NCBI GenBank assembly: GCA_945787125.1
Contig: CALZHW010000003.1
Coordinates: 4,094 to 68,093, forward strand
Reading direction: 5' to 3'
Length of the DNA: 64,000 bases
DNA from: an uncultured Ectothiorhodospiraceae bacterium
GTDB taxonomy: Bacteria; Pseudomonadota; Gammaproteobacteria; S012-40
Shown: piece after piece, positions 11,958 through 51,454 of the stretch
Numbering within the stretch: position 1 is the first letter of the stretch
Layout: the number at the start of each line of letters is the position of its first letter
Program-made: the position numbers and the translations under genes
The notes under the pieces: generated by a model
What the model was told of the DNA's origin: nothing
The model's input: the letters and a program-made list of their open reading frames with translations, nothing else
Database searches by the model: none

Positions 11958-14900
11958 TCACCAGCATCATTGACGCCTCCCTGCGTAATCGCTTCCTGAT
12001 TATCATCGCCACTATTATAATCGTGGCGGCAGGGCTGTGGTCGATGAAAAATACACCGCTGGATGCGATTCCTGATCTCTCAGATGTGCAGGTCATCGTC
12101 TTCACCGAATACCCTGGTCAAGCACCCCAAGTGGTTGAAGATCAAGTCACCTATCCGTTGACTACGGCCATGCTGGCCGTGCCCAACGCCAAGGTAGTAC
12201 GCGGTTATTCCTTTTTTGGTTTCTCCTTCGTCTACATCATCTTTGACGACGGTACCGACATGTACTGGGCGCGTTCGCGGGTTCTGGAGTATCTCAACTA
12301 CGTCAGCGGTCGTCTGCCTGATGGCTTAACACCTTCATTAGGGCCGGATGCCACCGGAGTAGGCTGGATCTATGAATATGCCCTGGTCGATAGAACCGGC
12401 AATACCGACCTGGCAGAATTGCGTTCTATTCAAGACTGGTATCTGCGTTATCCCTTACAGACGGTAGAAGGGGTCGCCGAAGTGGCGTCCGTTGGCGGTT
12501 ATGTCAAACAGTATCAGGTAGAAGTCGATCCCAATGCGTTGCTGGCCTACAGCATTCCGCTGTCGAAAGTGAAGCATGCCATTCAGCGCTCTAACAACGA
12601 TGTCGGTGGTAAGTTGGTGGAGATGGCCGAGACTGAATACATGGTGCGCGGCCTGGGTTATATTCAGTCTATTGATGACCTCAATGTGATACCGGTTGGC
12701 GTCGATGAAAATGGCACGCCGATTCGTTTGCAGGATGTGGCGCATGTGCACTTGGGCCCTGAACTGCGCCGTGGCGTGGCGGAATTCAATGGCGAAGGCG
12801 AAGTGGCGGGCGGTGTGGTGATTATGCGCTACGGTGAAAATGCCATGGCGGTCATTGAACGAGTGCGCGCCAAACTGGAAACGTTAAAACCCGGCTTGCC
12901 TGAAGGGGTAGAGATTGTGCCAGTCTATGATCGGGGCGACCTCATTACACGGGCGGTGGAAAACCTTGAAGAGAAATTGATCGAAGAGATCATCGTCGTT
13001 AGCATCATCTGTATCTTGTTTTTGCTGCATGCCCGTTCGGCTTTAGTGGCAATTATCTCCCTGCCTATCGGCATCTTGCTCGCTTTTACGATCATGAAAT
13101 GGCAGGGCATCAATGCCAACATCATGTCCTTAGGGGGGATTGCGATTGCCATTGGTGCCATGGTGGATGGGGCGATTGTGATGATCGAAAACGCGCACAA
13201 ACACCTGGAGCAAATGGTTAAAGAGAAAGGCCGAGAACTAACTTCGCCCGAACGATGGCAAGCTGTCTCAGAAGCATCCCGAGAAGTCGGCCCGGCACTG
13301 TTCTTTTCGCTACTGATTATCACCGTCTCCTTCCTGCCAGTGTTTACCTTACAAGCACAGGAAGGGCGACTTTTCGCGCCACTCGCCTTTACAAAAACCT
13401 ATGCTATGGCTGCGGCGGCTATCTTGGCGATTACCTTAGTACCGGTGCTAATGGGTTATTTTATTCGCGGCAAGATTCCGCCTGAAGCCAAAAATCCGGT
13501 CAACCGTTTTCTCCATTTCATTCATGTACCGACACTGGATCTTGCCATTCGCTGGCGTTGGGTGACATTAACGTTGGCCCTGCTGTTGTTAGTTGCAACG
13601 GCCTATCCACTCAGCAAGCTGGGCAGTGAATTTATGCCGCCGCTGAATGAGGGTGACATTCTTTATATGCCGACTACCTACCCTGGTGTTTCTATCACCA
13701 AGGCCAAGGAACTCTTGCAGCAGACAGACAAGATCATTAAAACGTTTCCCGAGGTGCAGAGTGTTTTCGGCAAGGTGGGGCGAGCCGAAACCGCTACTGA
13801 TCCGGCGCCGCTGGCAATGCTCGAAACCACGATTCGACTCAAACCCAAAGACGAGTGGCCTGACCCGAAAAAGACAGTGAAAGAACTGATGGACGAGATG
13901 GACGCGGCGATTAAATTTCCGGGGCTAGCCAACGCTTGGACCATGCCTATCAAGACCCGCATCGATATGCTTTCCACCGGTATTAAAACACCCATCGGCA
14001 TCAAGGTTAGCGGGCCTGATTTAAAGGTATTGGAGGAGGTTGGTAATGATATCGAGCAGGCCTTGAAACAACTACCCGATACGCTCTCTGCTTTTGCGGA
14101 TAAAGCAGCCGGTGGTTACTACCTCGACTTCGATATCAACCGCGAAGAGGCGTCCCGTTACGGGCTCACCACTGGCGATGTACAGGATGTGATTCAGACC
14201 GCCATCGGTGGCATGAACGTGACTCAGACCGTTGAAGGCTTGGAGCGTTATCCGATCAACTTGCGTTATCCCCGCGAGCTACGCGATAACCTCGATAGTC
14301 TAAAGCGAGTATTGATTCCCACACCCACCGGCGCGCAAATTCCTCTGTCGCTGGTAGCTGATCTGGAACTGCGTCGTGGTCCACCAGGCATCAAGAGCGA
14401 AAACTCTCGCCCCAATGCTTGGGTTTATGTGGATATCAAAACTTCGGACATTGGCGGTTATGTGGAACAGGCCAAAAAGGTGGTGGCCAGCCAGGTCAAA
14501 ATCCCGCCCGGCTACAACCTCGTGTGGTCCGGTCAGTTCGAGTACATGGAGCGGGCGGCCGAACGTTTACGTATCGTCGTGCCCGCTACCTTATTGGTGA
14601 TTTTTCTGTTGCTCTACTTCAACTTCCGCAACATCACTGCGCCGTTGGTCGTCATGCTCTCCATTCCATTTGGTTTGATCGGTGGCTTTTGGTTGATCTA
14701 TTTGTTGGGCTACAATCTCTCGGTTGCTGTGGTGGTCGGGTTTATCGCCCTGGCAGGAGTCGCGGCGGAGATTGGCGTTTTGGTGCTTACCTTCATCGAT
14801 CAAGAATTGGCTCGGCGTCGTAAAGAAAAAGGTCACTTAGACGCGGCTGACATCATGTCCGCTGTGCATCGCGGCACATCAGCACGGGTTCGTCCCATCG

Positions 14901-15148
14901 CCATGACGGCCACTGCAATTATCGCTGGTCTGCTACCCATCATGTGGGGCACTGGCACAGGATCTGAAGTGATGCAACGCATCGCTGCACCAATGGTGGG
15001 TGGTATGGTCACAGTCACGATTCTCTGCCTGCTGGTGTTACCAGTAATCTATGGCTTGGTTCTTCAAGTCCAGGAAAAATTTAAACAGGGTCATAACGAC
15101 CAGGAGACAGCTTCGCATAATGGGTTGGGCGAAACTGGTACTCGATAA
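11954..15148 (+). CDS. Heavy-metal efflux RND transporter (HME-RND, CusA/CzcA family)
   Basis: 1064 aa, 12 TM segments with two large periplasmic loops, and the characteristic AIVMIENAHK and GG..VM motifs of CusA/CzcA pumps. Confidence 0.9.
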   Translation: MITSIIDASLRNRFLIIIATIIIVAAGLWSMKNTPLDAIPDLSDVQVIVFTEYPGQAPQVVEDQVTYPLTTAMLAVPNAKVVRGYSFFGFSFVYIIFDDGTDMYWARSRVLEYLNYVSGRLPDGLTPSLGPDATGVGWIYEYALVDRTGNTDLAELRSIQDWYLRYPLQTVEGVAEVASVGGYVKQYQVEVDPNALLAYSIPLSKVKHAIQRSNNDVGGKLVEMAETEYMVRGLGYIQSIDDLNVIPVGVDENGTPIRLQDVAHVHLGPELRRGVAEFNGEGEVAGGVVIMRYGENAMAVIERVRAKLETLKPGLPEGVEIVPVYDRGDLITRAVENLEEKLIEEIIVVSIICILFLLHARSALVAIISLPIGILLAFTIMKWQGINANIMSLGGIAIAIGAMVDGAIVMIENAHKHLEQMVKEKGRELTSPERWQAVSEASREVGPALFFSLLIITVSFLPVFTLQAQEGRLFAPLAFTKTYAMAAAAILAITLVPVLMGYFIRGKIPPEAKNPVNRFLHFIHVPTLDLAIRWRWVTLTLALLLLVATAYPLSKLGSEFMPPLNEGDILYMPTTYPGVSITKAKELLQQTDKIIKTFPEVQSVFGKVGRAETATDPAPLAMLETTIRLKPKDEWPDPKKTVKELMDEMDAAIKFPGLANAWTMPIKTRIDMLSTGIKTPIGIKVSGPDLKVLEEVGNDIEQALKQLPDTLSAFADKAAGGYYLDFDINREEASRYGLTTGDVQDVIQTAIGGMNVTQTVEGLERYPINLRYPRELRDNLDSLKRVLIPTPTGAQIPLSLVADLELRRGPPGIKSENSRPNAWVYVDIKTSDIGGYVEQAKKVVASQVKIPPGYNLVWSGQFEYMERAAERLRIVVPATLLVIFLLLYFNFRNITAPLVVMLSIPFGLIGGFWLIYLLGYNLSVAVVVGFIALAGVAAEIGVLVLTFIDQELARRRKEKGHLDAADIMSAVHRGTSARVRPIAMTATAIIAGLLPIMWGTGTGSEVMQRIAAPMVGGMVTVTILCLLVLPVIYGLVLQVQEKFKQGHNDQETASHNGLGETGTR

Positions 15149-15184
15149 TTAATCATTTAGCCCAAAGTTTGTAAGGATTAAGCA

Positions 15185-15655
15185 ATGAGAAAAGTAGTAA
15201 AACCTTTATCAGCGATCACCTTCGTCGCATTGTTAGCGGCAACAGGATCTTTGTACGCATCAGGTGATCACTCACAGGGTCACGATGATCATAATAAGTC
15301 TGAAATGAAACATGATAATCACGGCTCTACCATGGGAGAAATGTTTCTAAAGAAAACGGAGATCGATGGTTACGATGTTAGTTTTCATATCATGAAAGCC
15401 AAACCTGGCAAACAGATGGGTGGCACCCATGACTTTATGGTTAAAGTCGAAAAAGATGGAAAGGCACTTTCTAACATTGTTATGAATACGAAAGTTAAAC
15501 ACCCAAACGGCAAGTCGGAAAGTAAAAAAGCCATGAAGATGGGGGATTGGCTGATGGCAGGTTATGACTTGGGGCACGAAGGTAAACACCAGTTAATGAT
15601 TTTGTTTAAGACCGCTGATGGTAAGAAACACAAAGGCGGTGTTTATTATCCATAG
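15185..15655 (+). CDS. Secreted His/Met-rich putative metal-binding protein, uncharacterised family (paralog A2)
   Basis: Signal peptide, His-rich N-terminus (GDHSQGHDDHNKSEMKHDNHGS), and the same conserved core as ORF 8013. Confidence 0.6.
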   Translation: MRKVVKPLSAITFVALLAATGSLYASGDHSQGHDDHNKSEMKHDNHGSTMGEMFLKKTEIDGYDVSFHIMKAKPGKQMGGTHDFMVKVEKDGKALSNIVMNTKVKHPNGKSESKKAMKMGDWLMAGYDLGHEGKHQLMILFKTADGKKHKGGVYYP

Positions 15656-15678
15656 TCCCTTAAAAACAGGACTGAATT

Positions 15679-15726
15679 ATGTCAATGATTATGACATCTC
15701 TTAACACAAGTAATGAGGAACATTAA
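15679..15726 (+). pseudogene. 15-codon remnant of a CMD-family gene start (paralog of 8511..9092)
   Basis: ATGTCAATGATTATGACATCTCTTAACAC... gives MSMIMTSLNTSNEEH*. The first codons match ATGTCAATCATTAACAC (MSIINT) of the intact CMD gene. It occupies the same position, between the A-paralog and the membrane protein. Confidence 0.4.
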
Positions 15727-16356
15727 ATGATTGAAATAATTCCCAATTGGCACCCGATTTTCGTGCACTTTACTGTCGCATTATTATCGCTGGCAGCCGG
15801 ACTTTTTGTCGTAACACCGTTTATTAAATCTCCGTTGAAAGAACAGTGGATCATCGTTGCCCGGTGGACGTTGTGGTTCGGCGCGGGAATCACCATCATT
15901 ACGGGACTCACCGGACTTTATGCATATAACACAGTTGATCACGATTCTCCGTCGCACCTGGCAATGACGGAACATCGCAACTGGGCGATTGTGACAATCT
16001 CGCTTTTTCTAGCGCTTGCTGCGTGGTCTATAGTCTGGGTACGTAAAAACAAAACGTTGGGAACAGCGTTTGTGGTGTGTATTGCGATCGCAGGCGCTGT
16101 CTTGGGCTCTACCGCTTGGCACGGTGGCGAAGTGGTCTATCGTTATGGCATTGGCGTGATGTCGTTACCGAAAGTAGAGGGTGACGGACATAACCACGCC
16201 CATGGCGAAAGTAGTGATCATAAAGATGCTTCTAAAACAGGTATGGAAGAACGTCACAATAATCACAGCGAAAGGGAACATCAAGATGAAATGAAGATGG
16301 ATTTCAGTGACATGGATACGATGAAAAATGATGATGGTCATGATCATGACCATTAA
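15727..16356 (+). CDS. DUF2231-like integral membrane protein with a His-rich C-terminal tail
   Basis: Four predicted TM helices, an N-terminal NWHPIFVHF motif, and a C-terminal HNHAHGESSDH...DDGHDHDH tail. Confidence 0.55.
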   Translation: MIEIIPNWHPIFVHFTVALLSLAAGLFVVTPFIKSPLKEQWIIVARWTLWFGAGITIITGLTGLYAYNTVDHDSPSHLAMTEHRNWAIVTISLFLALAAWSIVWVRKNKTLGTAFVVCIAIAGAVLGSTAWHGGEVVYRYGIGVMSLPKVEGDGHNHAHGESSDHKDASKTGMEERHNNHSEREHQDEMKMDFSDMDTMKNDDGHDHDH

Positions 16357-16498
16357 AAATTTTGTTGAATTAACCTGAGATCACTAATCATTGATATGTA
16401 CGATATTAGAGGCGATTTAAAGAGGTGTAAGGACGAGACTTTCCTTTGCTTGTTCGGGAGGTGAAGCAAATATAATGAATTAATGAAGGAGGCAGGTC

Positions 16499-18943
16499 AT
16501 GAAAACCGATCCGGTTTGTGGCATGGACGTGGCGGATGATACTCGATATCACACGAATCACAATGAGCAGATGTTTTACTTTTGCAGTGAGCATTGTTTG
16601 CATAAATTTGAGACTGAGCCAGAAAAATATGTGCAGACCGAGTCGCTCACCGATCCAGTGTGCGGTATGAATGTCACTGAGGAGTCGGTGCATCACACTG
16701 AGCATAGGGGCAAAACACATTATTTTTGCAGTACAGGCTGTTTGAATAAGTTTTTGGCATCATCAGAACAATATCTTAGGGATGTTCACTCTCAACACGC
16801 CGTTCATGATAATAAGTCGGTGGATAAGTCCGCGATCTACACTTGCCCCATGCATCCTGAAATCGAACAGCAAGGCCCGGGCAGTTGTCCTAAGTGCGGT
16901 ATGGCGCTGGAACCGCGCACGGTCGAAGCCGATGAGGATACCAGCGAACTGGATGACATGACACGCCGTTTCTGGGTCAGCTCTCTACTGGCGATCCCGG
17001 TTTTTTTTAGCGCTATGGCTGCCGAGTTTTGGCCAGAGTTCATCAATGGCCTAATTTCACCGGTCGCACGGCAATGGGGCGAGCTCATTTTATCCGCTCC
17101 TGTAGTGTGGTGGGGTGGCTGGGTTTTCTTTCAACGCGGCTGGCAATCTATTGTCACTCGCAATCTTAATATGTTCACGTTAATAGCTGTCGGTGTTGGT
17201 ATTGCCTGGATTTACAGTCTTATTGCAGTACTGCTGCCGGGTATATTTCCGCCCGCTGTCTTTAGTGAGGCAGGAGTAGTTCCGGTCTATTTTGAAGCTG
17301 CCGCTGTGATTACCGCTCTCGTCCTGTTAGGGCAAGTAATGGAGCTGCGCGCTCGTAGCCAAACCAATGCTGCCATTAAACTTCTGCTTGGCCTGGCCCC
17401 AAAAGCAGCGCGTATTGTTCGTGAAGATGGCACGGAGGAAGATATTCCGTTGGAGCATGTTCAAGTTGGAGATCACTTACGTATTCGTCCCGGCGAAAAA
17501 ATACCTGTGGATGGTAATGTTATCAATGGTGAAAGTAATGTTGACGAATCCATGGTGACCGGTGAGCCAATTCCTGTCGCCAAGTCAGTGGGCGAGCGAC
17601 TAATCGGCGCTACCGTCAACGGTACAGGTGGCCTGTTGATGCGCGCCGAGAAAGTGGGTGCCGATACGTTGCTCGCACAGATCGTCAAAATGGTTGCTGA
17701 TGCGCAGCGCTCCCGCGCACCGATTCAAAAATTGGTGGATATTGTTGCCGGTTACTTCGTACCGACAGTGGTGGTCATCGCCGTTATTACCTTCATTGTT
17801 TGGAGTTTGTTTGGGCCGGAACCCGCTATTGCCTATGCCGTGATTAACGCCGTGGCGGTATTGATTATTGCCTGCCCTTGTGCGCTAGGTTTAGCCACTC
17901 CCATGTCCATCATGGTTGGTACCGGCAAAGGAGCGATGATGGGGGTGTTGATCAAAAATGCGGAGGCATTAGAGATTATGCAAAAGGTGGATACTCTGGT
18001 TGTGGACAAAACCGGTACGCTTACCGAAGGCAAACCAAAGCTGGTCTCGGTGTTTGCCAATGAAGATTTTAAAGAGAATGACAATCTGCGTCTGGCTGCC
18101 AGTTTAGAGCGAGCTAGCGAGCATCCGCTGGCGGAAGCGATTGTGAAAGGCGCTGAGGAACGTGGAATAGATTTGGCTCAAGCTCAAAACTTTCAATCAG
18201 TAACTGGCAAGGGTGTTACCGGAAATGTAGACGGAAGGGAAGTGGCCCTGGGAAATCTAAAATTACTTGAGAGTCTCGGTATTGATGCGGGTGGTTTGCC
18301 GCAACAAGCAGACAATCAACGTGCCGAAGGTCAGACCGTGATGTTGCTGGCGGTTGATGGTAAAGCCGCGGGTTTGATCGGTGTCGCCGATCCAATTAAA
18401 GAGAGCACACCGGAGGCGATCCGTAATTTACATGAGGAAGGTATCCGCGTGGTCATGCTCACCGGGGATAGTCGCAAGACCGCCGAAGCAGTCGCTGCTA
18501 AACTGGGTATTGATCAAGTACACGCCGAAGTGTTGCCAGAACAAAAAGCTGAAGTAGTAAAACAACTTCAGGCTGAAGGATTCATCGTCGCCATGGCGGG
18601 TGATGGTATCAATGATGCGCCTGCTTTGGCCCAGGCCCATGTGGGCATTGCCATGGGTACTGGTACTGATGTAGCCATGGAAAGCGCAGGTGTAACATTG
18701 GTCAAGGGTGATTTGCGAGGCATCGTACGTGCTGTGCGATTATCGCGCGCCACTATGCGCAACATTCGCCAAAACTTGTTCTTTGCCTTTATCTATAACG
18801 CCGCCGGAGTGCCAATAGCGGCGGGGGTGCTTTATCCCGTCTTCGGATTACTACTCTCTCCCATGATAGCGGCAGCAGCCATGAGCTTCAGTTCGGTATC
18901 AGTGATCACCAATGCCTTACGGTTGAGGCGAGTTAAATTATGA
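16499..18943 (+). CDS. copA: Copper(I)-translocating P1B-type ATPase with an N-terminus of two TRASH/YHS domains plus a CPMHPE..CPKCGM domain
   Basis: TRASH/YHS motifs CGMDV...FCSEHC and CGMNV...FCSTGC, then [22 protein letters not shown], then the CPC transduction motif, [15 protein letters not shown] and the HP motif. 814 aa. Confidence 0.9.
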
Positions 18944-18961: not shown

Positions 18962-19648
18962 ATGCAACAAATGCATGGTGATACTGGGTATGCCTATGGT
19001 ATGTGGGTAGTAGCGGCTTTTAACATCGGCATTTTTCTGTTTTTCATTTTAAGTTTTCTCAAGCCGCGGGGCAGCGAGGAATGGCGCAGCATGGGGGTAG
19101 TAACTGCCTTTCTGGTGGCACTCTTCGCCGAGATGTATGGTTTTCCTTTAACGATTTATCTGCTTTCTGGCTGGTTAGGCGATGCCTACCCAGTGTTACA
19201 ACCCTTCAACCATAAATACGGTCACCTTTGGGTAGTGGTGTTTGGTGGCTCAACCCTGGCTTGGGCAATAGTGATGGGTTTGAGTCTGGGGTTTATGATA
19301 ATGGGCTATATGCTACTCTCGAAGGGCTGGACGCAGATCCACGCTGCTCAAGGTGGATTGGTTTCTAACGGAATCTATGCTTATGTGCGTCATCCTCAAT
19401 ACACAGGATTGTTCCTCGTTATTATCGGTTTTCTAATTCAGTGGCCCACGTTGCTCACCGTGATAATGGCTCCCATTCTTCTTTATGCTTATACACATTT
19501 AGCACGAGTCGAAGAAAAGCGTGCGGAGAAAGTATTTGGTGACGCATATATTAAATACGCAGACAAAACGCCTGCTTTTTTTCCACCACTAAATCAATGG
19601 CACGCATTTCTAACACTAGAGGTAGACAAATTAGATGAGAGAAAATAA
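18962..19648 (+). CDS. Isoprenylcysteine carboxyl methyltransferase (ICMT/PEMT) family membrane protein
   Basis: Multi-TM protein with the NGIYAYVRHPQYTG motif of the ICMT family. Confidence 0.65.
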   Translation: MQQMHGDTGYAYGMWVVAAFNIGIFLFFILSFLKPRGSEEWRSMGVVTAFLVALFAEMYGFPLTIYLLSGWLGDAYPVLQPFNHKYGHLWVVVFGGSTLAWAIVMGLSLGFMIMGYMLLSKGWTQIHAAQGGLVSNGIYAYVRHPQYTGLFLVIIGFLIQWPTLLTVIMAPILLYAYTHLARVEEKRAEKVFGDAYIKYADKTPAFFPPLNQWHAFLTLEVDKLDERK

Positions 19649-20100: not shown

Positions 20101-23100
20101 TTAATTACCTTTTTTGGCTATATTTAGCGATTTTATTTTCTTATAATCAAATTGCGGATCATTTTCTGCTCGTCGAGTAAAGTCGTATTCCCCTCGAAGG
20201 TTCACGTGGGCCCAGGTAATGACAGATCCCTCACCAATCGATTTAATGATAATAGAACGCTGCTCTTTATTGGGTGTTTCTATGATTAAATTCGAAAGGT
20301 ACAAATAATTCCAAAGTATAATCGAATTTTGTAACAAGACTTGGCAGGCTGTTGATAGTTGCTGTTCTTCTTTTGTTCCAACTTGAAATGCCTGATCATT
20401 ATCAAAAAATACAGCATGTGCGAATTTATTGGTTTGTTCAATTCGATTTAATTGCTTTTGGATCTGTTGCCTTAGCTCCACATCATCATAATACGTCAAT
20501 ATGAAATTAGATTTTATGATTCTTCCAAGTTCTTGAAGTGCTTTGTATAAAGGGTGGGATTTGTTATATGAATTTAGTCGACTAAATAATTGAGATGCCG
20601 ACGTGTGGTTCATTTTTATCGTTGCGATGAATCTAAGCACATCGTCCCAATGTTGAAGAATATGCTTTTTGTCAATTGATCGACTGGGAAGAAGAACATA
20701 ACCTTTTTTCTCGTAGGTTCGTCTTGCAGAAAAACTGATTAATCGTTGGTGTCCAATGTTTTTTATTCGTGGCGCAAAATCAACACCAATCATATGGGTA
20801 GCTGCGAAAACTTGCTCAGTATATCCATGTGTGTCGGTTGAGTGAATTTGATTTTGTGAGACATTATTATGCATTAAACCATCAATGACATATGCCGCTT
20901 CTCGATCAGATGAACTAAAAACAGTTGAATAAAATAACGATTGTCGTTCATCAATAAAGGTATACATGGTTACCCCTTTTTCTTTACCAAAATATTTGAA
21001 CGAATAATTGGCATGGAGACTATCAACTGAGACATTCACTTTCCGGCCATCGCTACTGGAATGTAATATTGAAGGCTTATTAATATAATTATTGGCAAGC
21101 CCTAAGCCATGGATCGCACTCACAATACGCTGATTGGCTTCTGTGATATTTTTTAGATCAAGGCACCAATTAACTGCATTATGTAATATATGTTCAGAAA
21201 TGCCGGTAGAAATATTCGCTAGTTTTCGTATGCCAATATTACACCCCTTACCAATTACACCGGCTAAAAGGGTTTCTTCTGAAGGCTTTAATTTGACATT
21301 TTTAGTGCTAAAGTGTTTAAAACACTGAGTGAAATCTGTTGCTGCATTAACTTCTTTAAGGACTTTCAGTATGGGTGTATATCCGTTTTGAGTTAACGTT
21401 GTCGTGATAAATTCTTTGCCTTCATTATCGACGCCCGGTGTCGTAATGACAGGTTTCCCGGCAGCATTAATTTTAAAAAAGGGATTTTTATTGTCAATAA
21501 TGCGTTGATTAACCGAATGATATTTTTCATCTAATACCTCCTTTAGTTTGCCTAAATAATCCTTACCATCAGCAAATTTTGATAGATCACATTCCTCGAG
21601 TATGCGCTCTTTATTGTCTTTCCAATATTGTTTGTCAATCATGTAATCTTGAAATGCCCTGTATCGATAAGAATAAAGTAAATTTAATTTATCAGATCGA
21701 ATTCCTTTTGAAATATGAACAAACAAAAGGCATTTATAAAGGGGTACGACAAATTTATTCTCGTGGTAGAGACTGGCAAGTTCTGAGTCACTGAGAAATG
21801 CAGTGGGTGCTCGATGTGTTATTTTTCCATCAGTTTCTTTAAAATAATCAATTGCCTCCAGTAGTTCCGGTGACGAGTTTGTGCGATCAAATTCCAAAAC
21901 ATTAATAATACCGGATACTCGGCGCTGTAATTTATTTGACTGTGATTTAAGTAACTCGTAATAAGCTTGATTTCTTGCTTCTTTTGATAAATATTCATCG
22001 ATGGTGTTCAATTTTCCTTCGTCTTCTGTGGTTAAATCATCAAGTAAATTAACCAGTTCTTCAATTTTATGATATTTTTCATTTGGTGTAGCATCTTTGG
22101 ACTCTACAATCGTAATAACCGCTTTACTAAATTCCAATAACGACTTGTGCGAATTGTTTAATATTTGTAACGCTTCGTTTCTTTCTTTTTTTGTCTCTTG
22201 CTCTTTATTAGATAACTTGGAATTAACAGCATGAAGCATGGAATTCACCGATTTTTGGAGTATTTCAACCAAGGCATCTTGTCGTAAATAAAACTGATGC
22301 TTAATAAAAGCAAGAAGATGTAAATACACCTTATATCGATCCGACAATTGATTTAATTGCTGATAATCCACTTTTGAAAACCATGTCGCAAAATATTCTG
22401 TGGCAGGGTCACTGAGTGGCAATGTTTTAAGTATATTTTCCATTGACATAATAAGGTCTTTAAATATCAGCGTGTTTTTAATGTTTTCTTTAATTTCACC
22501 AGGTTTCAATCCTTGATTGATATTTTTTAAATCAGTGATGAAAGGGCGAGAACGTTGAAAATCGTTCTTTTCGTATGACAGTATGTTTTCTAAGCTTTGA
22601 CAATCTTCGCTGTTCAATTGCCTGGATAAACAATCAATTAACTGCAGCTCTGTTACGTTAATACAATCCTGAATGATGAGGCATAAGTCAGTATAGGAAG
22701 GTATACAAAATTGGTGTTTCCAGCACTGATCAATAAGTCCAATGAAAATGTCTTTAGGCTTAACTTGGTTATTCGCTTGTCGTAAAGCAAAGTTAGTGAG
22801 CATGTCATTTTCCGATGACCCAAATTTTGACCAACCTTGTTGGACTAAAATTTTGGAACGATGTTTAGAGTTGATTGTACTGTTGTATTTTTGCAAATCG
22901 ATATCTTTACATTGTAAAATTGCTTGGACGTGTTGAATATCGCGTTTTTTGAATTTTTCCGTGGGATAAAATCGAGCATTTGCCCGAAAATAGGCTAACT
23001 GCAAAAGAAAGCCAGCTCGCATATGATGATTTTCCATTCTGGATATGGATCGCTTTAAGCCGGGTGTTAATGAAAAATACAATGTCCGTTCTTCATTGTT

Positions 23101-23163
23101 GAATTTTGGTGGCAATTCGAATTGGCTTTTTTCCTGAGGCGACAGAATGGCAAGTAGAGTCAT
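20101..23163 (-). CDS. tnpA: Tn3-family transposase
   Basis: 1020 aa. N-terminal IR-binding region similar to Tn3 TnpA (..AGFLLQLAYFRANARF..) and a C-terminal DDE RNase-H-like domain. Confidence 0.9.
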   Translation of the reverse strand: MTLLAILSPQEKSQFELPPKFNNEERTLYFSLTPGLKRSISRMENHHMRAGFLLQLAYFRANARFYPTEKFKKRDIQHVQAILQCKDIDLQKYNSTINSKHRSKILVQQGWSKFGSSENDMLTNFALRQANNQVKPKDIFIGLIDQCWKHQFCIPSYTDLCLIIQDCINVTELQLIDCLSRQLNSEDCQSLENILSYEKNDFQRSRPFITDLKNINQGLKPGEIKENIKNTLIFKDLIMSMENILKTLPLSDPATEYFATWFSKVDYQQLNQLSDRYKVYLHLLAFIKHQFYLRQDALVEILQKSVNSMLHAVNSKLSNKEQETKKERNEALQILNNSHKSLLEFSKAVITIVESKDATPNEKYHKIEELVNLLDDLTTEDEGKLNTIDEYLSKEARNQAYYELLKSQSNKLQRRVSGIINVLEFDRTNSSPELLEAIDYFKETDGKITHRAPTAFLSDSELASLYHENKFVVPLYKCLLFVHISKGIRSDKLNLLYSYRYRAFQDYMIDKQYWKDNKERILEECDLSKFADGKDYLGKLKEVLDEKYHSVNQRIIDNKNPFFKINAAGKPVITTPGVDNEGKEFITTTLTQNGYTPILKVLKEVNAATDFTQCFKHFSTKNVKLKPSEETLLAGVIGKGCNIGIRKLANISTGISEHILHNAVNWCLDLKNITEANQRIVSAIHGLGLANNYINKPSILHSSSDGRKVNVSVDSLHANYSFKYFGKEKGVTMYTFIDERQSLFYSTVFSSSDREAAYVIDGLMHNNVSQNQIHSTDTHGYTEQVFAATHMIGVDFAPRIKNIGHQRLISFSARRTYEKKGYVLLPSRSIDKKHILQHWDDVLRFIATIKMNHTSASQLFSRLNSYNKSHPLYKALQELGRIIKSNFILTYYDDVELRQQIQKQLNRIEQTNKFAHAVFFDNDQAFQVGTKEEQQLSTACQVLLQNSIILWNYLYLSNLIIETPNKEQRSIIIKSIGEGSVITWAHVNLRGEYDFTRRAENDPQFDYKKIKSLNIAKKGN

Positions 23164-28797: not shown

Positions 28798-29031
28798 ATG
28801 GCAGCAGCAACCATTACAAGTAAAGGTCAGATAACGATACCTGCTCCAGTCAGGATGGATCTTCATGTTGGCCCGGGTGATCGGATTGAGTTTGTAAAAC
28901 TCTCAGATGGTCGATATGAAGTCGTCGCCGCCACTCAGGATGTGTCATGCATTAAAGGGATGATTAAGGCGATCAGTGCTGTGAGCATTGAAGAGATGGA
29001 CGATGCCATCCGAAGGAAGGCGAGGCAATAA
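28798..29031 (+). CDS. AbrB/MazE/SpoVT-family antitoxin-like protein (apparently an orphan)
   Basis: SKGQITIPAPVRMDLHVGPGDRIEF matches the swapped-hairpin AbrB/MazE fold. No toxin ORF follows; only a 5-codon ORF overlaps its stop. Confidence 0.55.
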   Translation: MAAATITSKGQITIPAPVRMDLHVGPGDRIEFVKLSDGRYEVVAATQDVSCIKGMIKAISAVSIEEMDDAIRRKARQ

Positions 29032-29174: not shown

Positions 29175-29510
29175 TTAATATTCCATTTCTGACGGTTCAA
29201 CTTCCTGTGTATGCTCAATACTTAAATGCTGAATAACATCTTCACTCTGGCTAGGAACGCCGATAATTTCGATTCCTTCGCTTGTTTCACGATAAAATAT
29301 TGTGTGCTTTCCTTCAAAATAACTTTGGTAACCTTCCTTTATTTCATCACGCTCTAAGCCAAGTTTGGGGTTTACCACTAACCATTCAAAACGGCTTTCT
29401 AATTGACCCATATATTTTTCGGCTTGTTTCTCCCCCCATGTTTCAATCGAGTAATCACGAATATTAGTAAGGTCGTTTTGGGATAATTCGGAAAGCTTAT
29501 AGTTTGGCAC
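29175..29510 (-). CDS. ParE/RelE-family type II toxin
   Basis: 111 aa with a ParE-like core (IRDYSIETWGEKQAEKY...FEGKHTIFYRETSEGIEIIGV). The start abuts the upstream antitoxin stop. Confidence 0.65.
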   Translation of the reverse strand: MPNYKLSELSQNDLTNIRDYSIETWGEKQAEKYMGQLESRFEWLVVNPKLGLERDEIKEGYQSYFEGKHTIFYRETSEGIEIIGVPSQSEDVIQHLSIEHTQEVEPSEMEY

Positions 29511-29758
29511 TATCTTTTGCCTTCCCTCATTTCTTGAAAAAATTCCCGTCCATCCATAGATTCGCCTCTGTTTAGCTGTGCTTCACCAATTGCAAGCTTT
29601 GCTCGTAGGCGTTCTAGTTTAATCTGCTCATATTCGGTTTGAGACATAACAACAGCTACGGGTCGCCCATGTTTTTCAATTGTCACTGGTTCACGTTGTA
29701 CCGTATCCATGAGCTTTCCGAAATGCTCTTTTGCTTCTTTTGCTGCAATGGCTATCAT
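29510..29758 (-). CDS. Phd/YefM-type antitoxin
   Basis: 82 aa. N-terminal region MIAIAAKEAKEHFGKLMDTVQREPVTIEKHGRPVAVVMS is typical of Phd/YefM. It is the first gene of the two-gene operon. Confidence 0.6.
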   Translation of the reverse strand: MIAIAAKEAKEHFGKLMDTVQREPVTIEKHGRPVAVVMSQTEYEQIKLERLRAKLAIGEAQLNRGESMDGREFFQEMREGKR

Positions 29759-29786: not shown

Positions 29787-29822
29787 TAATGAACATAATG
29801 AACATAATGAACATAATGAACA
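29787..29822. repeat. Four perfect 9-bp direct repeats (TAATGAACA) just upstream of the phd/parE operon; candidate operator
   Basis: taatgaaca x4 at 29787..29822. The antitoxin start (minus strand) is at 29758. Confidence 0.6.
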
Positions 29823-30310: not shown

Positions 30311-30751
30311 ATGTTATCGGAAAAAGACATCACCGATGCTCTGGGTGGGCCGAAGTTACTTGGCAAACAGGCCAACACCGTCCTCGATCTGGCTGACCTG
30401 ATCCAGCAAGGACTGCCCACGCAATCGGTATTTCACCTCCAAAAGGAAATGGCGTTACGGGATGACGACTATGCACCCACGTTAGGCGTGAGCATCAAAT
30501 GGCTCGGTCGCTACCGTAATACCCCTCGTCAGCATATGGATGCGAATGTGAGCGACCGCCTTTACCGTATCGCCCGTATCTTCGCCCTGGCGGAAGAGGT
30601 CTTGGAAGACAAGGAAGCCGCCAATCGCTGGCTGCATCGTCCGCAATCAGGGCTTGGCGAACGCACCCCGCTGGAACTAATGAAAAATGAGGTGGGCGCA
30701 CGGGAAGTCGAGGAGCTGCTGTATCGCATCGAGTACGGTATTTATTCATGA
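30311..30751 (+). CDS. Xre/MbcA/ParS-type antitoxin (DUF2384) partner of a RES toxin
   Basis: 146 aa. C-terminal LGERTPLELMKNEVGAREVEELLYRIEYGIY matches the DUF2384 toxin-binding domain. The stop overlaps the next gene's start. Confidence 0.7.
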   Translation: MLSEKDITDALGGPKLLGKQANTVLDLADLIQQGLPTQSVFHLQKEMALRDDDYAPTLGVSIKWLGRYRNTPRQHMDANVSDRLYRIARIFALAEEVLEDKEAANRWLHRPQSGLGERTPLELMKNEVGAREVEELLYRIEYGIYS

Positions 30752-31212
30752 TCAGAGCCGTTCGGATCGCCAAAGCCAAACACAAAAAGCAAGCATTTAC
30801 CGGCCAGGGGAGCCAATTTGCCAGTGGTCGTTGGCATCATCAAATGATCACCCTTGTCTATTGCTCAGGCACCGCCGCCTTAGCGGCATTAGAAGTATTT
30901 GTGCATCTTCAGGATGAAGCGAAACAAATCAAGTTTGTTCTATTTGAGATAAAACTGCCAAAAAACCTCCTGCTTGAGGTTGAAAACATTGCCACGCTAC
31001 CCAAGCGATGGCGAAGTCAACCGCCAGGGGCAGCAACCAAAATGATGGGTAGCAAGTGGGTAACATCCCAGGCTTCAGCAGTACTCAGTGTGCCGTCGAC
31101 AATTATACCCAGCGAGAGAAACTTCCTGCTCAATCCCCTGCATCCAGATTTTAATAACATCACGATCAGCGACCCCGAGCCGTTCAGTTTTGATTCTCGA
31201 TTGTGGAAATAG
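30748..31212 (+). CDS. RES-domain toxin (MbcT-like NAD+ phosphorylase family)
   Basis: 154 aa. R (ASGRWHH), E (IPSERN) and S (SVPSTI) positions are consistent with the RES triad. Pairing with DUF2384 is typical. Confidence 0.7.
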   Translation: MIRAVRIAKAKHKKQAFTGQGSQFASGRWHHQMITLVYCSGTAALAALEVFVHLQDEAKQIKFVLFEIKLPKNLLLEVENIATLPKRWRSQPPGAATKMMGSKWVTSQASAVLSVPSTIIPSERNFLLNPLHPDFNNITISDPEPFSFDSRLWK

Positions 31213-31336
31213 CGCGTTTTCCGTTGTTTGTTGGGCGAGGTAATACAAAATTAACTACCCACAGGTATTTAAGTCGTCAGGATTAAACTGATTAAGATGG
31301 GAATGACCACATGCTTTTGCCCTAACCTGCATTTAA

Positions 31337-31400
31337 CCTAGAATAATCAGTTGGCGCGAATTTTTAGTGCAAAATATTGAAGTGCATAGTGAATTCAAGA
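31337..31400. repeat. Partial copy (left ~64 bp) of the MITE-like element found complete at 51293..51454
   Basis: cctagaataatcagttggcgcgaatttttagtgcaaRatattgaagtgcatagYgaattcaaga is shared with 51293..51356. Homology stops abruptly at 31400. Confidence 0.7.
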
Positions 31401-31927
31401 GCTGCCAACACCTTCTCGCTCTCTTCCACCCGGCGGCAAAAAGGAATCATCAACTTCACATTCGTCAGCCCCATCTCGTCACGCACCCGTTTCATCGCCA
31501 CACACTCCAACGCAAACCCTTCGGCGTAAGCAAGATAGGTGTAACGGGAGGCACCGCGAAAACCGACCATCGGATTGTCTTCTTCCGGCTCGAAAAAAGT
31601 ACCGCCCAGCAAGGCGGCGTATTTGATTAGGCTTGAGTATTGTTGCTTGCTTCTGTTGTCATGGATTCCGATTGCGGCAAAGAGAGTGGCCGCGCTCATA
31701 AAGCTGTACCCAAGGATATCTACCGCGCACAGGAATGAATTGAACGGCACAAACAGAAACATCTCGATACCTTCACTCTGGCCGCGCGCAAGCCGAGGTA
31801 ACACAAGTGTGAGCTGAACAAAATAAACGATGCTGATCCAGACCGTGTAAACCGTGGCGAATGCGGCGTGGCTCCAGATTTTTCTCTCCGGCACCGAAAG
31901 TTGGAGGATATTGGCAGGTCTGGGCAA
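31364..31927 (-). pseudogene. Chimeric ORF: an internal fragment of phosphoenolpyruvate synthase (ppsA) fused to MITE-derived codons and an unrelated N-terminal segment
   Basis: Residues about 112-175 (NPMVGFRGASRYTYLAYAEGFALECVAMKRVRDEMGLTNVKLMIPFCRRVEESEKV) match the PpsA PEP-utilising region. The last 12 codons lie in the MITE copy and the N-terminal 110 aa are unrelated. Confidence 0.5.
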
Positions 31928-33392: not shown

Positions 33393-33622
33393 TTTTATGG
33401 TTACTTTGTAGATTGCTGTTTAAAAAAAACGCCTTCCTGGTGACGCACCCCCTATTTCAGCGTAAGTTTCCCATGATTCATTCAAAGTAACAAGTTGTCA
33501 ATCAATTTGAAAAGTCAACGGTAATTTATCACACATAATGCACCAAATAATTCACAGTTAGTTTTCAATTAACTTAGTAAATTAACCTTGTTGTTTACCA
33601 TTAATCCAACAAGGAGAAAACT

Positions 33623-34087
33623 ATGTTTGATGAATATTTCACTAAACCAATTATAGCCGTTAATGGCTTGATACTCACAATATTGATTGGGACAAGCGCG
33701 TCCACTATTGCAGATGATTTTTCCCATAACGTTGTTTACCAATCAGCGAAGGATGCAATGTACGAAGACATTTCAATTCTTGCAAAGCAAGCAGAGCTTG
33801 ATGTTGACGCGGTTGAAAAATCGATTGTATTTCAAAATACGTTCGCGAAATTCGCCGAGCAAGTAAATAAAGATTTCCCTGATAGTATTTCAGGTTTGTG
33901 GGTAGATCCTACACCGCAATCAAACGCAGTAATTCGCTTTAAAGGTGACGTTCCACATGAAGTGAAGCGATCGCTTGAATATAACCAGCTTCCTGGAAAT
34001 GTTGTATTAAAAGGTGGGGATATACTCTCACTGGCTGATCAATTGTCACGTGTTAACATATTGCGGCTGAAGCGTTATTATCATTAG
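33623..34087 (+). CDS. Putative signal peptide plus pro-region of an alpha-lytic-protease-like S1 protease (upstream half of a split gene)
   Basis: 154 aa with an N-terminal hydrophobic segment. It ends 129 bp before the protease-domain ORF, and its last 30 nt overlap the open upstream part of that ORF's frame. Confidence 0.4.
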   Translation: MFDEYFTKPIIAVNGLILTILIGTSASTIADDFSHNVVYQSAKDAMYEDISILAKQAELDVDAVEKSIVFQNTFAKFAEQVNKDFPDSISGLWVDPTPQSNAVIRFKGDVPHEVKRSLEYNQLPGNVVLKGGDILSLADQLSRVNILRLKRYYH

Positions 34088-34215
34088 GTTATAAGAATGC
34101 TATTACATCATTCAATCAGAAATCACAAATCTTTGAAACCACTATCCAGCTTTCACGCACTGATAAAAAACCTTCTGTAGATCTTCGGCTCTTTTTAACG
34201 AGTGGTGAAAAACCC

Positions 34216-34806
34216 ATGATTAATTTTGAGCATAGTCGAGGTGGAAATTGGGTGTTGGATGATGGTTTTCGTGAATGCACAAGTGGTTGGCCTGTATTCG
34301 GTCCTTCTGGGGACGGTATTTTAACCGCAGCGCATTGTGCAGGCTTGAATCAATTTGAAGAACCCGGTAATACGCCCTACTCTATGATATGGAGAGCTCA
34401 GCACTTGGGCAGTCAAGGTGATGTTGAATATCATACAACCAGTCACTTGGAACCCGCAGAATTTTATGCAAATAGCAGCGATATACGTAATGTCACTGGC
34501 TGGCGTTGGACCTGGGCGATGCAAGGCGCTGCAGTTTGTCGTTACGGACGTTCATCAAATATACGCACCTGTAATCATACTGTTCTTTCAATCGGTGTAT
34601 CTGTCAATCAAAATGGCACTATTGTTGGTAACATGGTCACTGCGAACAATCATTCAGGAATCGGTAGTGATAGCGGCGGTGGCTGGTCATTTGGCTCAAC
34701 CGCCTGGGGCATACACAGTGGTTCAATTTTCTCAGGTTCTACATCGGTGTTTACACCTATATTTGAAGGAATGATAGCCGTGGGTACGTCTCTAAAAACA
34801 CAATAG
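34216..34806 (+). CDS. Trypsin-fold serine protease domain (S1E, alpha-lytic/SGPB-like). No signal peptide of its own.
   Basis: Catalytic His in LTAAHC and catalytic Ser in GSDSGGGW. The N-terminus resembles a mature S1E N-terminus (..RGGNWVLDDGFRECTSGWPV). The reading frame is open back to 34057. Confidence 0.75.
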   Translation: MINFEHSRGGNWVLDDGFRECTSGWPVFGPSGDGILTAAHCAGLNQFEEPGNTPYSMIWRAQHLGSQGDVEYHTTSHLEPAEFYANSSDIRNVTGWRWTWAMQGAAVCRYGRSSNIRTCNHTVLSIGVSVNQNGTIVGNMVTANNHSGIGSDSGGGWSFGSTAWGIHSGSIFSGSTSVFTPIFEGMIAVGTSLKTQ

Positions 34807-34832
34807 CAATAGATAGTGGATAGATTCTTCTA

Positions 34833-34866
34833 CAATAAGGGCAGTAAAATTGCCCTTATTGTTTTA
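34833..34866 (+). terminator. Rho-independent terminator after the protease gene
   Basis: caataagggc-agtaaaatt-gcccttattg followed by ttttac. Confidence 0.6.
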
Positions 34867-34930: not shown

Positions 34931-35017
34931 GCCGAGGTGGCGGAATTGGTAGACGCGCTAGCTTCAGGTGCTAGTGGGGGTAACCCCGTGGAGGTTCGAG
35001 TCCTCTTCTCGGCACCA
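34931..35017 (+). tRNA. tRNA-Leu (anticodon CAG), class II with a long variable arm, CCA encoded
   Basis: gccgaggtggcggaattggtagacgcgctagcttCAGgtgctagtgggggtaaccccgtggaggttcgagtcctcttctcggcacca shows an acceptor stem (gccgagg/tctcggc), a D-arm, an anticodon loop ctCAGgt, a long variable arm, and a T-arm (ggttcgagtcc). Confidence 0.9.
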
Positions 35018-35329: not shown

Positions 35330-35551
35330 GTGCCAGAAATTAAACGCCCTGTGCAAACCATTGAAGTGAATTATGTTTGCGATAAATGCGGATATGGAAT
35401 GATGAAAAAAACCCGTGAAATGGATCCAGATACCGGAGACATTCAGCACGAATGCGCAATTTGCAGCCATCCACAAGTTTTCAAATGGAGATCCTATCCT
35501 AGGATTGATTACGTTGGCGCTGATGAATCTATTGACGTTACCGAGGACTGA
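35330..35551 (+). CDS. Small zinc-ribbon protein (CxxC...CxxC), hypothetical
   Basis: 73 aa with the motifs CDKCG and CAICS. The RBS is ggaggctgaataaagtg. Confidence 0.4.
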   Translation: MPEIKRPVQTIEVNYVCDKCGYGMMKKTREMDPDTGDIQHECAICSHPQVFKWRSYPRIDYVGADESIDVTED

Positions 35552-36452
35552 TGAAACAGGAGCGATTAAGTAGCAATATTAAGAAAATACCCAACCCTAA
35601 ATAATGGGCCGTAATGACTAGCCTCCCCCAGCCTGTTGCTGAGTCAAACCCTGCTCATTGATGGCTTTGCTGAAGACTTGCGTCAGCTGAGAACGCAATT
35701 TCAAATATTTTATTTGTACGGCGTTATCTTCAAGCGCATTGTTGATGCTATCAACTACCTTTGATTTTATCGTTTACTCTGCTGTAAATACATAAGGGCT
35801 TGCCCTATTTTATCAAAACTCTCTTGGATGCTTTTTAACTTTCCAACATGTTTTCAATTTCTTATAATATCGTATTTTTAAATATTTTAGTGAGTAGAGC
35901 AATTCCTTGTTTGCTTTCACCGGCTCTTGTGCTGAATAAAATTCCTCTTCCATAAGTTTATCCAAATCTAGTGTTTGTCTATAATCCATAGTTGGTTAGC
36001 AAGCAATTAAACAGTGTACTTCTTGAGTTTTGTTTTATAAAAAAACGATAGTAAGCTATTTAAAAATTTTGTGTCGAAAACTTTTACACTTATTTGATAG
36101 GTAGTAATACGTAGAAAAAGATAATTATCAAGCTGAGTGTTTTTATCAACAAATAATTAGCATTTTTTATTTGTGGCATTAATTAGTGGCTTATAGATGA
36201 ATGTTAATTACATTTATTAAGTTCTCTCAAGTAAATCTTATTCCCAAAATCCCTTTACCACATGTCGAAATTACTTACAAATTAATTTTTAGTAATGTTT
36301 GTCTAAAAAAAATACATCTATTTCAATGACTTAAAAAGTGGCATCCGATATGCAATTTTTTATGCGTGCATGAAAAATGCAGCTTGTAGAGTTGACAAGG
36401 ATTGTTTTTTATTTGGAATAATTAATTGCAATAAAAAATAAGGAGAAATGTT

Positions 36453-37034
36453 ATGAAAAAGTCCACAATTGCAGCTGCCGTTGGTGCTTCATTGGCATTG
36501 TTAGCCAGTAGTGCAATAGCTGATACGTCAAACGACGCTTCTGCGAAAGTCTTCGTCCAAGTAAGTCCTAATGTGTCAGTTATATTTACAGATGCACATG
36601 TTGACTTAGGAACAGTGCAAACGGGTAAGTTTGGCGGTACGGCAACTTTCCGTGTTGACGCTAACGAAGAAGCTGTCATTCTTGGTGTTACTGCGACTAA
36701 TCTCTATAAAGGTGATGTCTGTGAGGCTGAGCCTGAAGTCGCACCTTTACCTGTCAATGGAGACGGCGCATTAGTACAGCCAGAACGCGCAAACCCATTT
36801 AACAGTTTCAGCCCATTGCTTCCTTGGGTGGCTGAAGCTAACTATTTGGACTGCGCGGGCATGCGCTCGACTGACGTTCCATATGAAAGCGCTCAAAATG
36901 GACACTTCAGTCAAGACGTAGACGTTAATGTGAGCTGGGATCAACCAGATCCTGAGCAACCTCAAGGTGAGTATAGTGGTTTCATCATTTTACACACCAT
37001 GTTGCTAGGTCAACCAGCTCTCGCATCTAACTAG
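36453..37034 (+). CDS. Secreted pilin-like subunit, likely SCPU/Csu-type (archaic chaperone-usher pilus major subunit)
   Basis: Signal peptide. The C-terminal motif GEYSGFIILHTML resembles the G.Y.d.l.v.v C-terminus of Csu/SCPU pilins. Paralog of ORF 37147. Strong RBS aaggag. Confidence 0.4.
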   Translation: MKKSTIAAAVGASLALLASSAIADTSNDASAKVFVQVSPNVSVIFTDAHVDLGTVQTGKFGGTATFRVDANEEAVILGVTATNLYKGDVCEAEPEVAPLPVNGDGALVQPERANPFNSFSPLLPWVAEANYLDCAGMRSTDVPYESAQNGHFSQDVDVNVSWDQPDPEQPQGEYSGFIILHTMLLGQPALASN

Positions 37035-51287: not shown

Positions 51288-51292
51288 ATTAT

Positions 51293-51454
51293 CCTAGAAT
51301 AATCAGTTGGCGCGAATTTTTAGTGCAAGATATTGAAGTGCATAGCGAATTCAAGAAATGCATGGTCACCTTATTGGTGATCTGCATATTTTTGAATTTG
51401 CTAGGTGCATCAAGAGCTTGTGCTAAAAATCGTGGTTCAACTGATTAATCTAGG
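51293..51454. mobile_element. MITE-like element (about 162 bp) with 17-bp terminal inverted repeats CCTAGAATAATCAGTTG, inserted between the dnaJ stop and its terminator
   Basis: cctagaataatcagttg at 51293 and caactgattaatctagg at 51438..51454 (1 mismatch). A partial second copy lies at 31337..31400. Confidence 0.65.

Follow-up and report, generated by a model that had tools for sequence, protein, structure and literature searches.

The locus described here occupies positions 33623..34806 on the forward strand of a 64,000-nucleotide stretch (the window) of contig CALZHW010000003.1, from an uncultured Ectothiorhodospiraceae bacterium. It holds two open reading frames (ORFs), ORF1 and ORF2, which a sequence-only reading had taken for the pro region and the catalytic domain of a protease resembling alpha-lytic protease. 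Our analysis confirmed both ORFs, their different frames and the opening of the catalytic frame back to 34057. The ORF2 frame is +2 relative to that of ORF1 and is open from 34057, following a TAA at 34054-56. The two frames do overlap, as had been noted, although by 31 nucleotides (34057-34087) and not by 30. No ATG, GTG or TTG occurs in the ORF2 frame across 34057-34215, and the first start codon in that frame is the one at 34216. The features of the gene are as follows (aa, amino acids; nt, nucleotides).

33611..33616, + strand: Shine-Dalgarno sequence AAGGAG, found by direct reading of the sequence, 6 nt before the ancestral start codon
33623..34087, + strand: ORF1, 154 aa
33623..33712, + strand: probable signal peptide (MFDEYFTKPIIAVNGLILTILIGTSASTIA / DD), with a hydrophobic core, an A-x-A-like site and a putative cleavage position
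33713..34063, + strand: N-terminal pro half, read in frame 0, to Leu147, colinear with residues ~55-168 of the Thalassomonas homologue P0001
34064..34065, + strand: frameshifting lesion, 2 extra nt CG (or GC at 34063-64) in TTG-CG-GCT
34066..34230, + strand: what is left of the C-terminal pro half, read in frame +2, whose translation AEALLSLGYKNAITSFNQKS... matches homologues
34085..34087, + strand: premature TAG stop in the shifted frame 0
34176..34177, + strand: junction of an in-frame deletion of ~108 nt (~36 codons relative to Thalassomonas) in the pro region
34216..34806, + strand: ORF2, 196 aa, with the N-terminus MINFEH
34231..34803, + strand: S1E-type catalytic domain, from HSRGGNW... 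to ...SLKTQ, recognised by PDB sequence matches and by the fold match of a homologue model
34333-35, 34420-22 and 34672-74, + strand: catalytic codons for His (in TAAHC), Asp (in GDVEYH) and Ser, respectively
34666..34668, + strand: AGT (Ser) in place of the Gly before the Asp-Ser of GDSGG
34832..34866, + strand: intrinsic terminator hairpin with a U-rich tail, 3' of the gene (RNA fold -18.8 kcal/mol, z = -6.3 against shuffled sequences)

With a Shine-Dalgarno sequence before ORF1 and a terminator after ORF2, the span 33611..34866 looks like one former gene. The hydrophobic N-terminal segment of ORF1 aligns with that of its homologues, and its n-region carries little positive charge.

Homologues were sought by joining both frames into a single query, which was compared with a collection of 5.8 billion proteins and returned 99 clusters. 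Nearly all of these are undivided proteins, 410-450 aa long, with a coverage of the joined query above 90%. The reading frame is interrupted in the window, whereas each of the 79 full-length homologues (385-470 aa) is one polypeptide from one ORF, and the same holds for every genome locus with a complete copy; the Thalassomonas locus (L001), for instance, carries one 449-aa ORF. The closest homologues, with 59-60% identity, are those of Thalassomonas haliotis, T. viridans and Thalassomonas sp. RHCl1. Others belong to Kangiella and Marinicella and to metagenome-assembled genomes (MAGs) of Chloroflexota, Trueperaceae, Nannocystaceae and Acidimicrobiia, among other groups. The sequence-only reading had raised the prospect of orthologues split in the same way; the homologues found are single genes. 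The surroundings of the Thalassomonas locus contain no tRNA and show no obvious neighbours in common with the window locus, so that its gene may be either an orthologue or a paralogue.

Short homologues of 228-253 aa, picked by product length, were checked as candidate conserved splits. In one of them (P0090 at locus L026, ENA ERZ25071132) the pro region is broken by a DDE_5 transposase, that is, by an insertion sequence (IS). Another (P0082 at locus L027, ENA ERZ25069810) has a +1 frameshift in the pro region, on a contig labelled 2x, which is probably an error. A conserved split, or a frameshift hot spot, was rejected on these grounds: these two short homologues are other broken copies, and the clustering of their breaks reflects their selection by product length.

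Pfam and NCBIfam gave zero matches for ORF1, ORF2 or the extended ORF2 frame, even at expectation values (E) up to 1, and a precomputed PF00089 match exists for only one of the 99 homologues. Current Pfam and NCBIfam models do not cover this protease clade. Because these models were silent, the family was assigned through sequence searches of the PDB and a structure model. Direct PDB sequence matches of the window ORF were 2SFA, 5MRT and 2PFE (E 1e-4 to 2e-3), and the extended ORF2 frame matched Streptomyces proteases, Lysobacter L1/L5 and a Thermobifida-type alkaline protease (E 1e-4 to 5e-3). A family profile reached glutamyl endopeptidase, many alpha-lytic-protease entries and streptogrisins (E 9e-6 to 1e-3), with no sequence-level match to pro chains among the PDB sequences.

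The structure that was modelled is that of the intact T. haliotis homologue P0001, not of the window protein, using AlphaFold2 with an 80-sequence alignment as input. The model has a mean predicted local distance difference test (pLDDT) score of 88 and a predicted template modelling (pTM) score of 0.84. In a Foldseek comparison with the PDB, the top 23 matches were all S1E enzymes, aligned with the C-terminal 190 residues at template modelling (TM) scores of 0.71-0.80. They include NAPase, SGPB, SGPA and alpha-lytic protease, with TM 0.75-0.80 for NAPase, SGPB and alpha-lytic protease (S1E structures at E 6e-11 to 1e-8). The catalytic part thus has the double beta-barrel chymotrypsin fold. The modelled pro region aligned with the pro chains 3pro_C, 4pro_C and 4pro_D over 181-185 columns (TM 0.60-0.65, E 4e-4 to 1.4e-3), a moderate match at the level of fold only. 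Its first alpha/beta unit is the counterpart of 33713..34063 in the window. The His, Asp and Ser of the catalytic triad are all present in the window copy, at invariant family columns, and the Gly ahead of the Asp-Ser pair is Ser. Of the two motifs first read in ORF2, TAAHC stands, while the supposed GDSGGG reads G-S-D-S-G-G-G (IGSDSGGG).

The sequence matches, together with the fold matches of the modelled homologue over both regions, support the earlier proposal that ORF1 and ORF2 are the two parts of a single ancestral prepro-protease of the S1E, or alpha-lytic-protease, type. The clade to which they belong is divergent and uncharacterised; its relatives are the streptogrisins and alpha-lytic protease (MEROPS S1E). 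From the example of alpha-lytic protease, we infer that members of the clade may depend on the pro region as a folding catalyst. The intact clade (P0001-P0099; loci L001-L023) comprises ~100 clusters of sporadic distribution with a ~200-aa pro region, mostly annotated as ‘hypothetical protein’.

Three changes set the window copy apart. The first is the frameshift. Across the junction homologues read ...RVNIL-ARS-LLSLGYKN..., whereas in the window ...RVNIL is encoded in frame 0 and AAEALLSLGYKN in frame +2. The distance from the Asn codon to the Tyr codon is 38 nt in the window against 36 nt in the homologues. At the lesion the window has TTGCGGCT, where the intact form would read TTGGCT. Removing the CG at 34064-65 gives ATA TTG GCT GAA GCG (ILAEA) and a single ORF of 393 aa, with the peptide ...SRVNILAEALLSLGYK... 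(...RVNIL-AEALL...) across the restored junction. Once corrected in this way, the alignment of 80 sequences has zero gaps in the 31 columns around the junction. The frame change is best explained, from this comparison of sequences, by a 2-nt insertion, whose position is precise only to 34058-34074, and not by the single-base indel first proposed. A 1-nt deletion combined with one extra codon is possible and less parsimonious. In the P0001 model the site of the frameshift maps within helix 158-174, midway through the pro region. The restored gene is shorter (393 aa against 410-450 aa) mainly through the ~36 missing pro codons, and its N-terminus is slightly shorter too. The ancestral length of ~390 aa that had been suggested falls short of that of the homologues.

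The second and third changes emerged from a leave-one-out comparison of the window copy with the 79 full-length homologues. A block of the pro region is absent from the window alone: at least 14 residues of it are present in 79 of 79 homologues, and 25-37 residues in nearly all. In the P0001 model this block corresponds to helix 206-222 and the loop that leads into strand 242-248. The Gly that precedes the Asp-Ser of GDSGG is likewise found in 79 of 79 homologues and is Ser in the window, the sole deviation of the window copy at columns conserved at 90% or more. The replaced residue is the equivalent of Gly193 in chymotrypsin. The backbone NH of chymotrypsin Gly193 forms the oxyanion hole.

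The sequences come from MAGs, and the gene might be intact in the organism, with the frameshift a sequencing or assembly error, as the sequence-only reading had allowed. The rest of the window gene is well conserved, and within the family the frameshift at L027 sits in a 2x-labelled contig and is probably such an error. The ORF1 and ORF2 products are, however, recorded with identical sequence on four NCBI contigs (20-50 kb up to 72,573 bp). One of these, CALZGR010000137 (GCA_945786995.1, 28 kb), shows no difference from the window along 14.8 kb. Another, CALZJZ010000003 (GCA_945787865.1, 72,258 bp), carries the same split and differs from the window by one single-nucleotide polymorphism (SNP; window position 19017) and a 27-nt variable-number tandem repeat (VNTR). 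The window itself is from yet another assembly. Contigs from three or more separate MAG assemblies of a near-clonal population, which differ elsewhere, thus agree on every base of the split, and this makes a one-off assembly error very unlikely. The check for homopolymers suggested by the sequence-only reading found none of 3 bases or more in 34040-34100, and none lies within 30 nt of the frameshift site. Moreover, the length difference at the junction is 2 nt, not 1, and the window copy bears two further, independent lesions. We regard an artefact as improbable. A scan of metagenome contigs with a pattern allowing 0-3 nt at the lesion found neither the broken nor the intact form, and the assembly accessions turned up nothing in the literature.

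The polymorphic repeat is itself a feature of the window. A 9-nt unit, TAATGAACA, is repeated in tandem in ~4 copies at 29787-29822, in the intergenic region that separates the Phd/ParE module from the Xre/RES module. With three copies (27 nt) more in GCA_945787865.1, the repeat is a VNTR that is polymorphic in this population.

The interrupted frame, the deletion and the change at the oxyanion hole lead us to conclude that 33623..34806 is very probably a single, recently inactivated pseudogene of a secreted alpha-lytic-protease-like prepro serine protease. This was one of three options in the sequence-only reading, and it is the one we favour. The ancestral product would have consisted of a signal peptide, a ~200-aa two-unit pro region acting as an intramolecular folding catalyst, and a ~190-aa catalytic domain. 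In this lineage a 2-nt insertion at ~34064-65, mid pro region, shifts the frame into the stop at 34085. The in-frame loss of ~36 codons removes a helix of the C-terminal pro unit, and Gly-to-Ser at the oxyanion-hole glycine of GDSGG is the third lesion. Translation from the true start would yield a 154-aa fragment with the signal peptide and half the pro region, from which a functional protease would not be expected. The 196-aa ORF2 starts at a conserved internal Met, and any product of it would lack an export signal, a foldase and an oxidising compartment for its conserved disulfides. From the sequence, protease function has presumably been lost.

The lesions appear to be young. Only 1 of the 46 columns conserved at 95% or more deviates in the window copy. 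Tajima relative-rate tests, run with four Thalassomonas sequences and five outgroups, showed no acceleration (all p ≥ 0.08, most > 0.2). Since the conserved columns are otherwise intact and the rate is not raised, purifying selection seems to have acted until recently and inactivation to be recent. Beyond the frameshift, the additional changes are the unique ~36-codon deletion and a unique Gly-to-Ser at an invariant site, in a copy that shows no increase in its overall rate of substitution, which fits a very recent inactivation. A short period of neutral decay accords with a total of one frameshift, a single deletion and one substitution at a conserved site.

Several points weigh against this interpretation. 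The triad, the four invariant Cys, the Shine-Dalgarno sequence and the terminator are all intact, and on this sequence evidence some residual function may persist. The deletion is in frame and could predate inactivation as a tolerated variant. The assemblies are near-clonal and may share a sequencing platform and pipeline, though a systematic error is unlikely. Finally, a sigma-70-like sequence, TTAACA-17-TATTAT, lies upstream of ORF2 at 34053-34081. As a promoter for ORF2 this candidate was rejected, given that sigma-70-like matches occur at chance level (5 found, 5.2 expected in shuffled sequence).

ORF2 might be a nascent homologue without a pro region or signal peptide that has taken on a new, possibly non-catalytic, role inside the cell. 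Natural pro-less homologues fold unaided and have been proposed to be pseudoproteases, and some of them branch from clades with large pro regions (bioRxiv 10.1101/2020.08.30.274340). Over its 196 aa ORF2 has an intact coding sequence, with a single unusual substitution, at the oxyanion hole. It shows no adaptive divergence, however: at all other conserved columns it agrees with the pro-dependent clade, and its rate is not raised. The four invariant Cys, presumed to form disulfides, are kept although the ORF2 product would be cytoplasmic. The context of its start is inherited coding sequence, and the two-ORF arrangement is confined to one near-clonal population. We consider such a new role doubtful in the extreme. 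A related thought, that ORF2 expressed alone would be a cytoplasmic intermediate on the way to pro-region loss and a pseudoprotease, with Gly-to-Ser opening the way to a non-catalytic role, strikes us as slightly more remote still.

The recently inactivated pseudogene also accounts better for the locus than a working split system would. In such a system the product of ORF1 would be secreted and would serve in trans as a pro-domain foldase, and ORF2 would be translated from the internal ATG at 34216. The idea has a precedent, as the pro region of alpha-lytic protease does act in trans (PMC2289522; bioRxiv 10.1101/2020.08.30.274340); it is required in cis or in trans, and the protease domain made without it is misfolded and inactive (PMC2289522). 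Unassisted folding of alpha-lytic protease takes millennia (bioRxiv 10.1101/2020.08.30.274340). The ATG lies 7-8 codons before the start of the mature domain, with a GGTGA 7 nt upstream. ORF1, however, breaks off within a helix halfway through the pro region and so offers only the signal peptide and the N-terminal pro half. The C-terminal pro unit (34066-34215) cannot be translated, having no start codon, and has lost one helix. This is the unit that short-pro homologues such as SGPB keep as their only pro unit (bioRxiv 10.1101/2020.08.30.274340), and the title of PDB entry 1BOQ describes the pro region C-terminus as critical for folding. Without a signal peptide on ORF2, foldase and client would end up in different compartments.

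The start of ORF2 offers the split system no further help. Its Met is a conserved residue of PMINFEHSRGGNW, and both the Met and the GGTGA also occur in the intact Thalassomonas gene. The GGTGA upstream of the ATG is thus present, as had been observed, but its reading as a ribosome-binding site did not hold up. An evolved ribosome-binding site for ORF2 was rejected, because the GGTGA encodes a conserved Ser-Gly-Asp/Glu and occurs in the intact Thalassomonas coding sequence. The two-gene arrangement was found in no homologue, the short ones that were checked being explained by an IS insertion and by a frameshift in a low-coverage contig. A trans-acting foldase with its separate client is, in our judgement, hardly credible. 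Programmed recoding (a -1 or +2 ribosomal frameshift, or transcriptional slippage) to a ~393-aa prepro-protease can be dismissed with similar firmness, for although the 31-nt frame overlap would let a shift anywhere in 34058-34084 give a near-colinear product, the overlap contains no X XXY YYZ slippery heptamer and no homopolymer, the two-frame layout occurs in no homologue and hence points to no conserved recoding site, and the recoded product would still miss the pro helix and carry the Gly-to-Ser change.

The pseudogene sits in a ~16-kb stretch (20-36 kb) rich in mobile and accessory elements, which also holds a gene for a DUF481 outer-membrane protein and a tRNA-Leu gene. The features placed there are listed below.

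20101-23163: Tn3-family transposase, 1020 aa
24725-25395: HigB toxin and its partner
28798-29031: MazE/PrlF-like antitoxin
29175-29758: ParE/Phd
30311-31212: Xre-MbcA/RES
34931..35017, + strand: tRNA-Leu(CAG), the downstream neighbour of the protease gene and outside it (ARAGORN and Rfam)

Several further observations concern the window. A 187-aa ORF on the reverse strand (31364-31927) covers just positions 97-158 of the PEP-utilizers_C domain, which has 293 positions, and is probably another gene remnant, beside a 64-aa YgaP-like membrane ORF. An intergenic sequence of 68 nt occurs twice, at 31333-31400 and 51289-51356 (95.6% identity, ~20 kb apart). It may represent a small repeat element, or else a regulatory or terminator region common to both sites. 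The large genes at 11954-18943 have a GC content of 50-52% and a GC content at third codon positions (GC3) of 49-59%, against 38-43% in the rest of the window. They are a 1064-aa ORF and a P-type ATPase with YHS/HMBD metal-binding domains, both of which adjoin the Tn3 transposase; this suggests that the block was acquired horizontally, possibly for metal handling. On the 3' side of tRNA-Leu, a 73-aa Cys-rich (CxxC...CxxC) ORF (35330-35551, + strand) has no family match, and nearly 1 kb (35476-36453) is free of any ORF of at least 70 aa. This region may be a degraded island junction. As to the host, an uncultured gammaproteobacterium of marine type, its Tsp protease has at most 75% identity to any named sequence.

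Gene decay in a region of mobile elements and toxin-antitoxin modules is unremarkable, and the pseudogene by itself adds little. What we describe is an ordinary instance of gene decay, not a protease system of a new, two-part kind. In annotation, both ORFs belong in one entry, marked as a pseudogene; protein collections now list them as two hypothetical proteins. The intact relatives, which Pfam and NCBIfam miss and which have a long, confidently modelled pro region, are the more useful by-product and would be of interest for the study of kinetically stabilised proteases.

Among known systems, alpha-lytic protease of Lysobacter enzymogenes (PDB 4PRO, 3PRO and 2ALP) has the same order of parts. 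A signal peptide, which is only probable in the window copy, is followed by a large pro region of two units and then by a chymotrypsin-fold domain of ~190-200 aa. Its pro region is about the size of the protease, as in the clade described here, and the TAAHC and DSGG motifs are common to both. Compared with P0001, the TM score is ~0.77 for the catalytic domain and 0.60-0.65 for the pro region. The two differ in sequence (~22% identity) and in the length of the pro region, 166 aa in alpha-lytic protease against ~200 aa in the clade. The window copy, with its frameshift, its deletion and the Gly193Ser change, is unlike alpha-lytic protease in not being a working member.

The streptogrisins, NAPase, glutamyl endopeptidase and other S1E proteases (2OUA, 1HPG, 2SFA and 3SGB) gave the best matches, in sequence and in fold, to the catalytic domain (profile E 9e-6; Foldseek E 6e-11, TM 0.79). 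They have a short pro region of ~76 aa that is homologous only to the C-terminal pro unit, whereas the clade has the long form. The pro-less homologues N2-N4 (PDB 6XHZ) consist of a catalytic domain only, as ORF2 alone would, and 6XHZ is among the fold matches of P0001. They belong to a separate actinobacterial clade, which has diverged and no longer has the residues associated with kinetic stability (bioRxiv 10.1101/2020.08.30.274340), whereas ORF2 is an unmodified member of the long-pro clade. A further comparison is with the homologues of Thalassomonas, Kangiella, Marinicella and the MAGs, which are full-length proteins with the same domain order and invariant residues. Unlike the window copy, they are single intact ORFs that keep both the pro helix block and the Gly of GDSGG.

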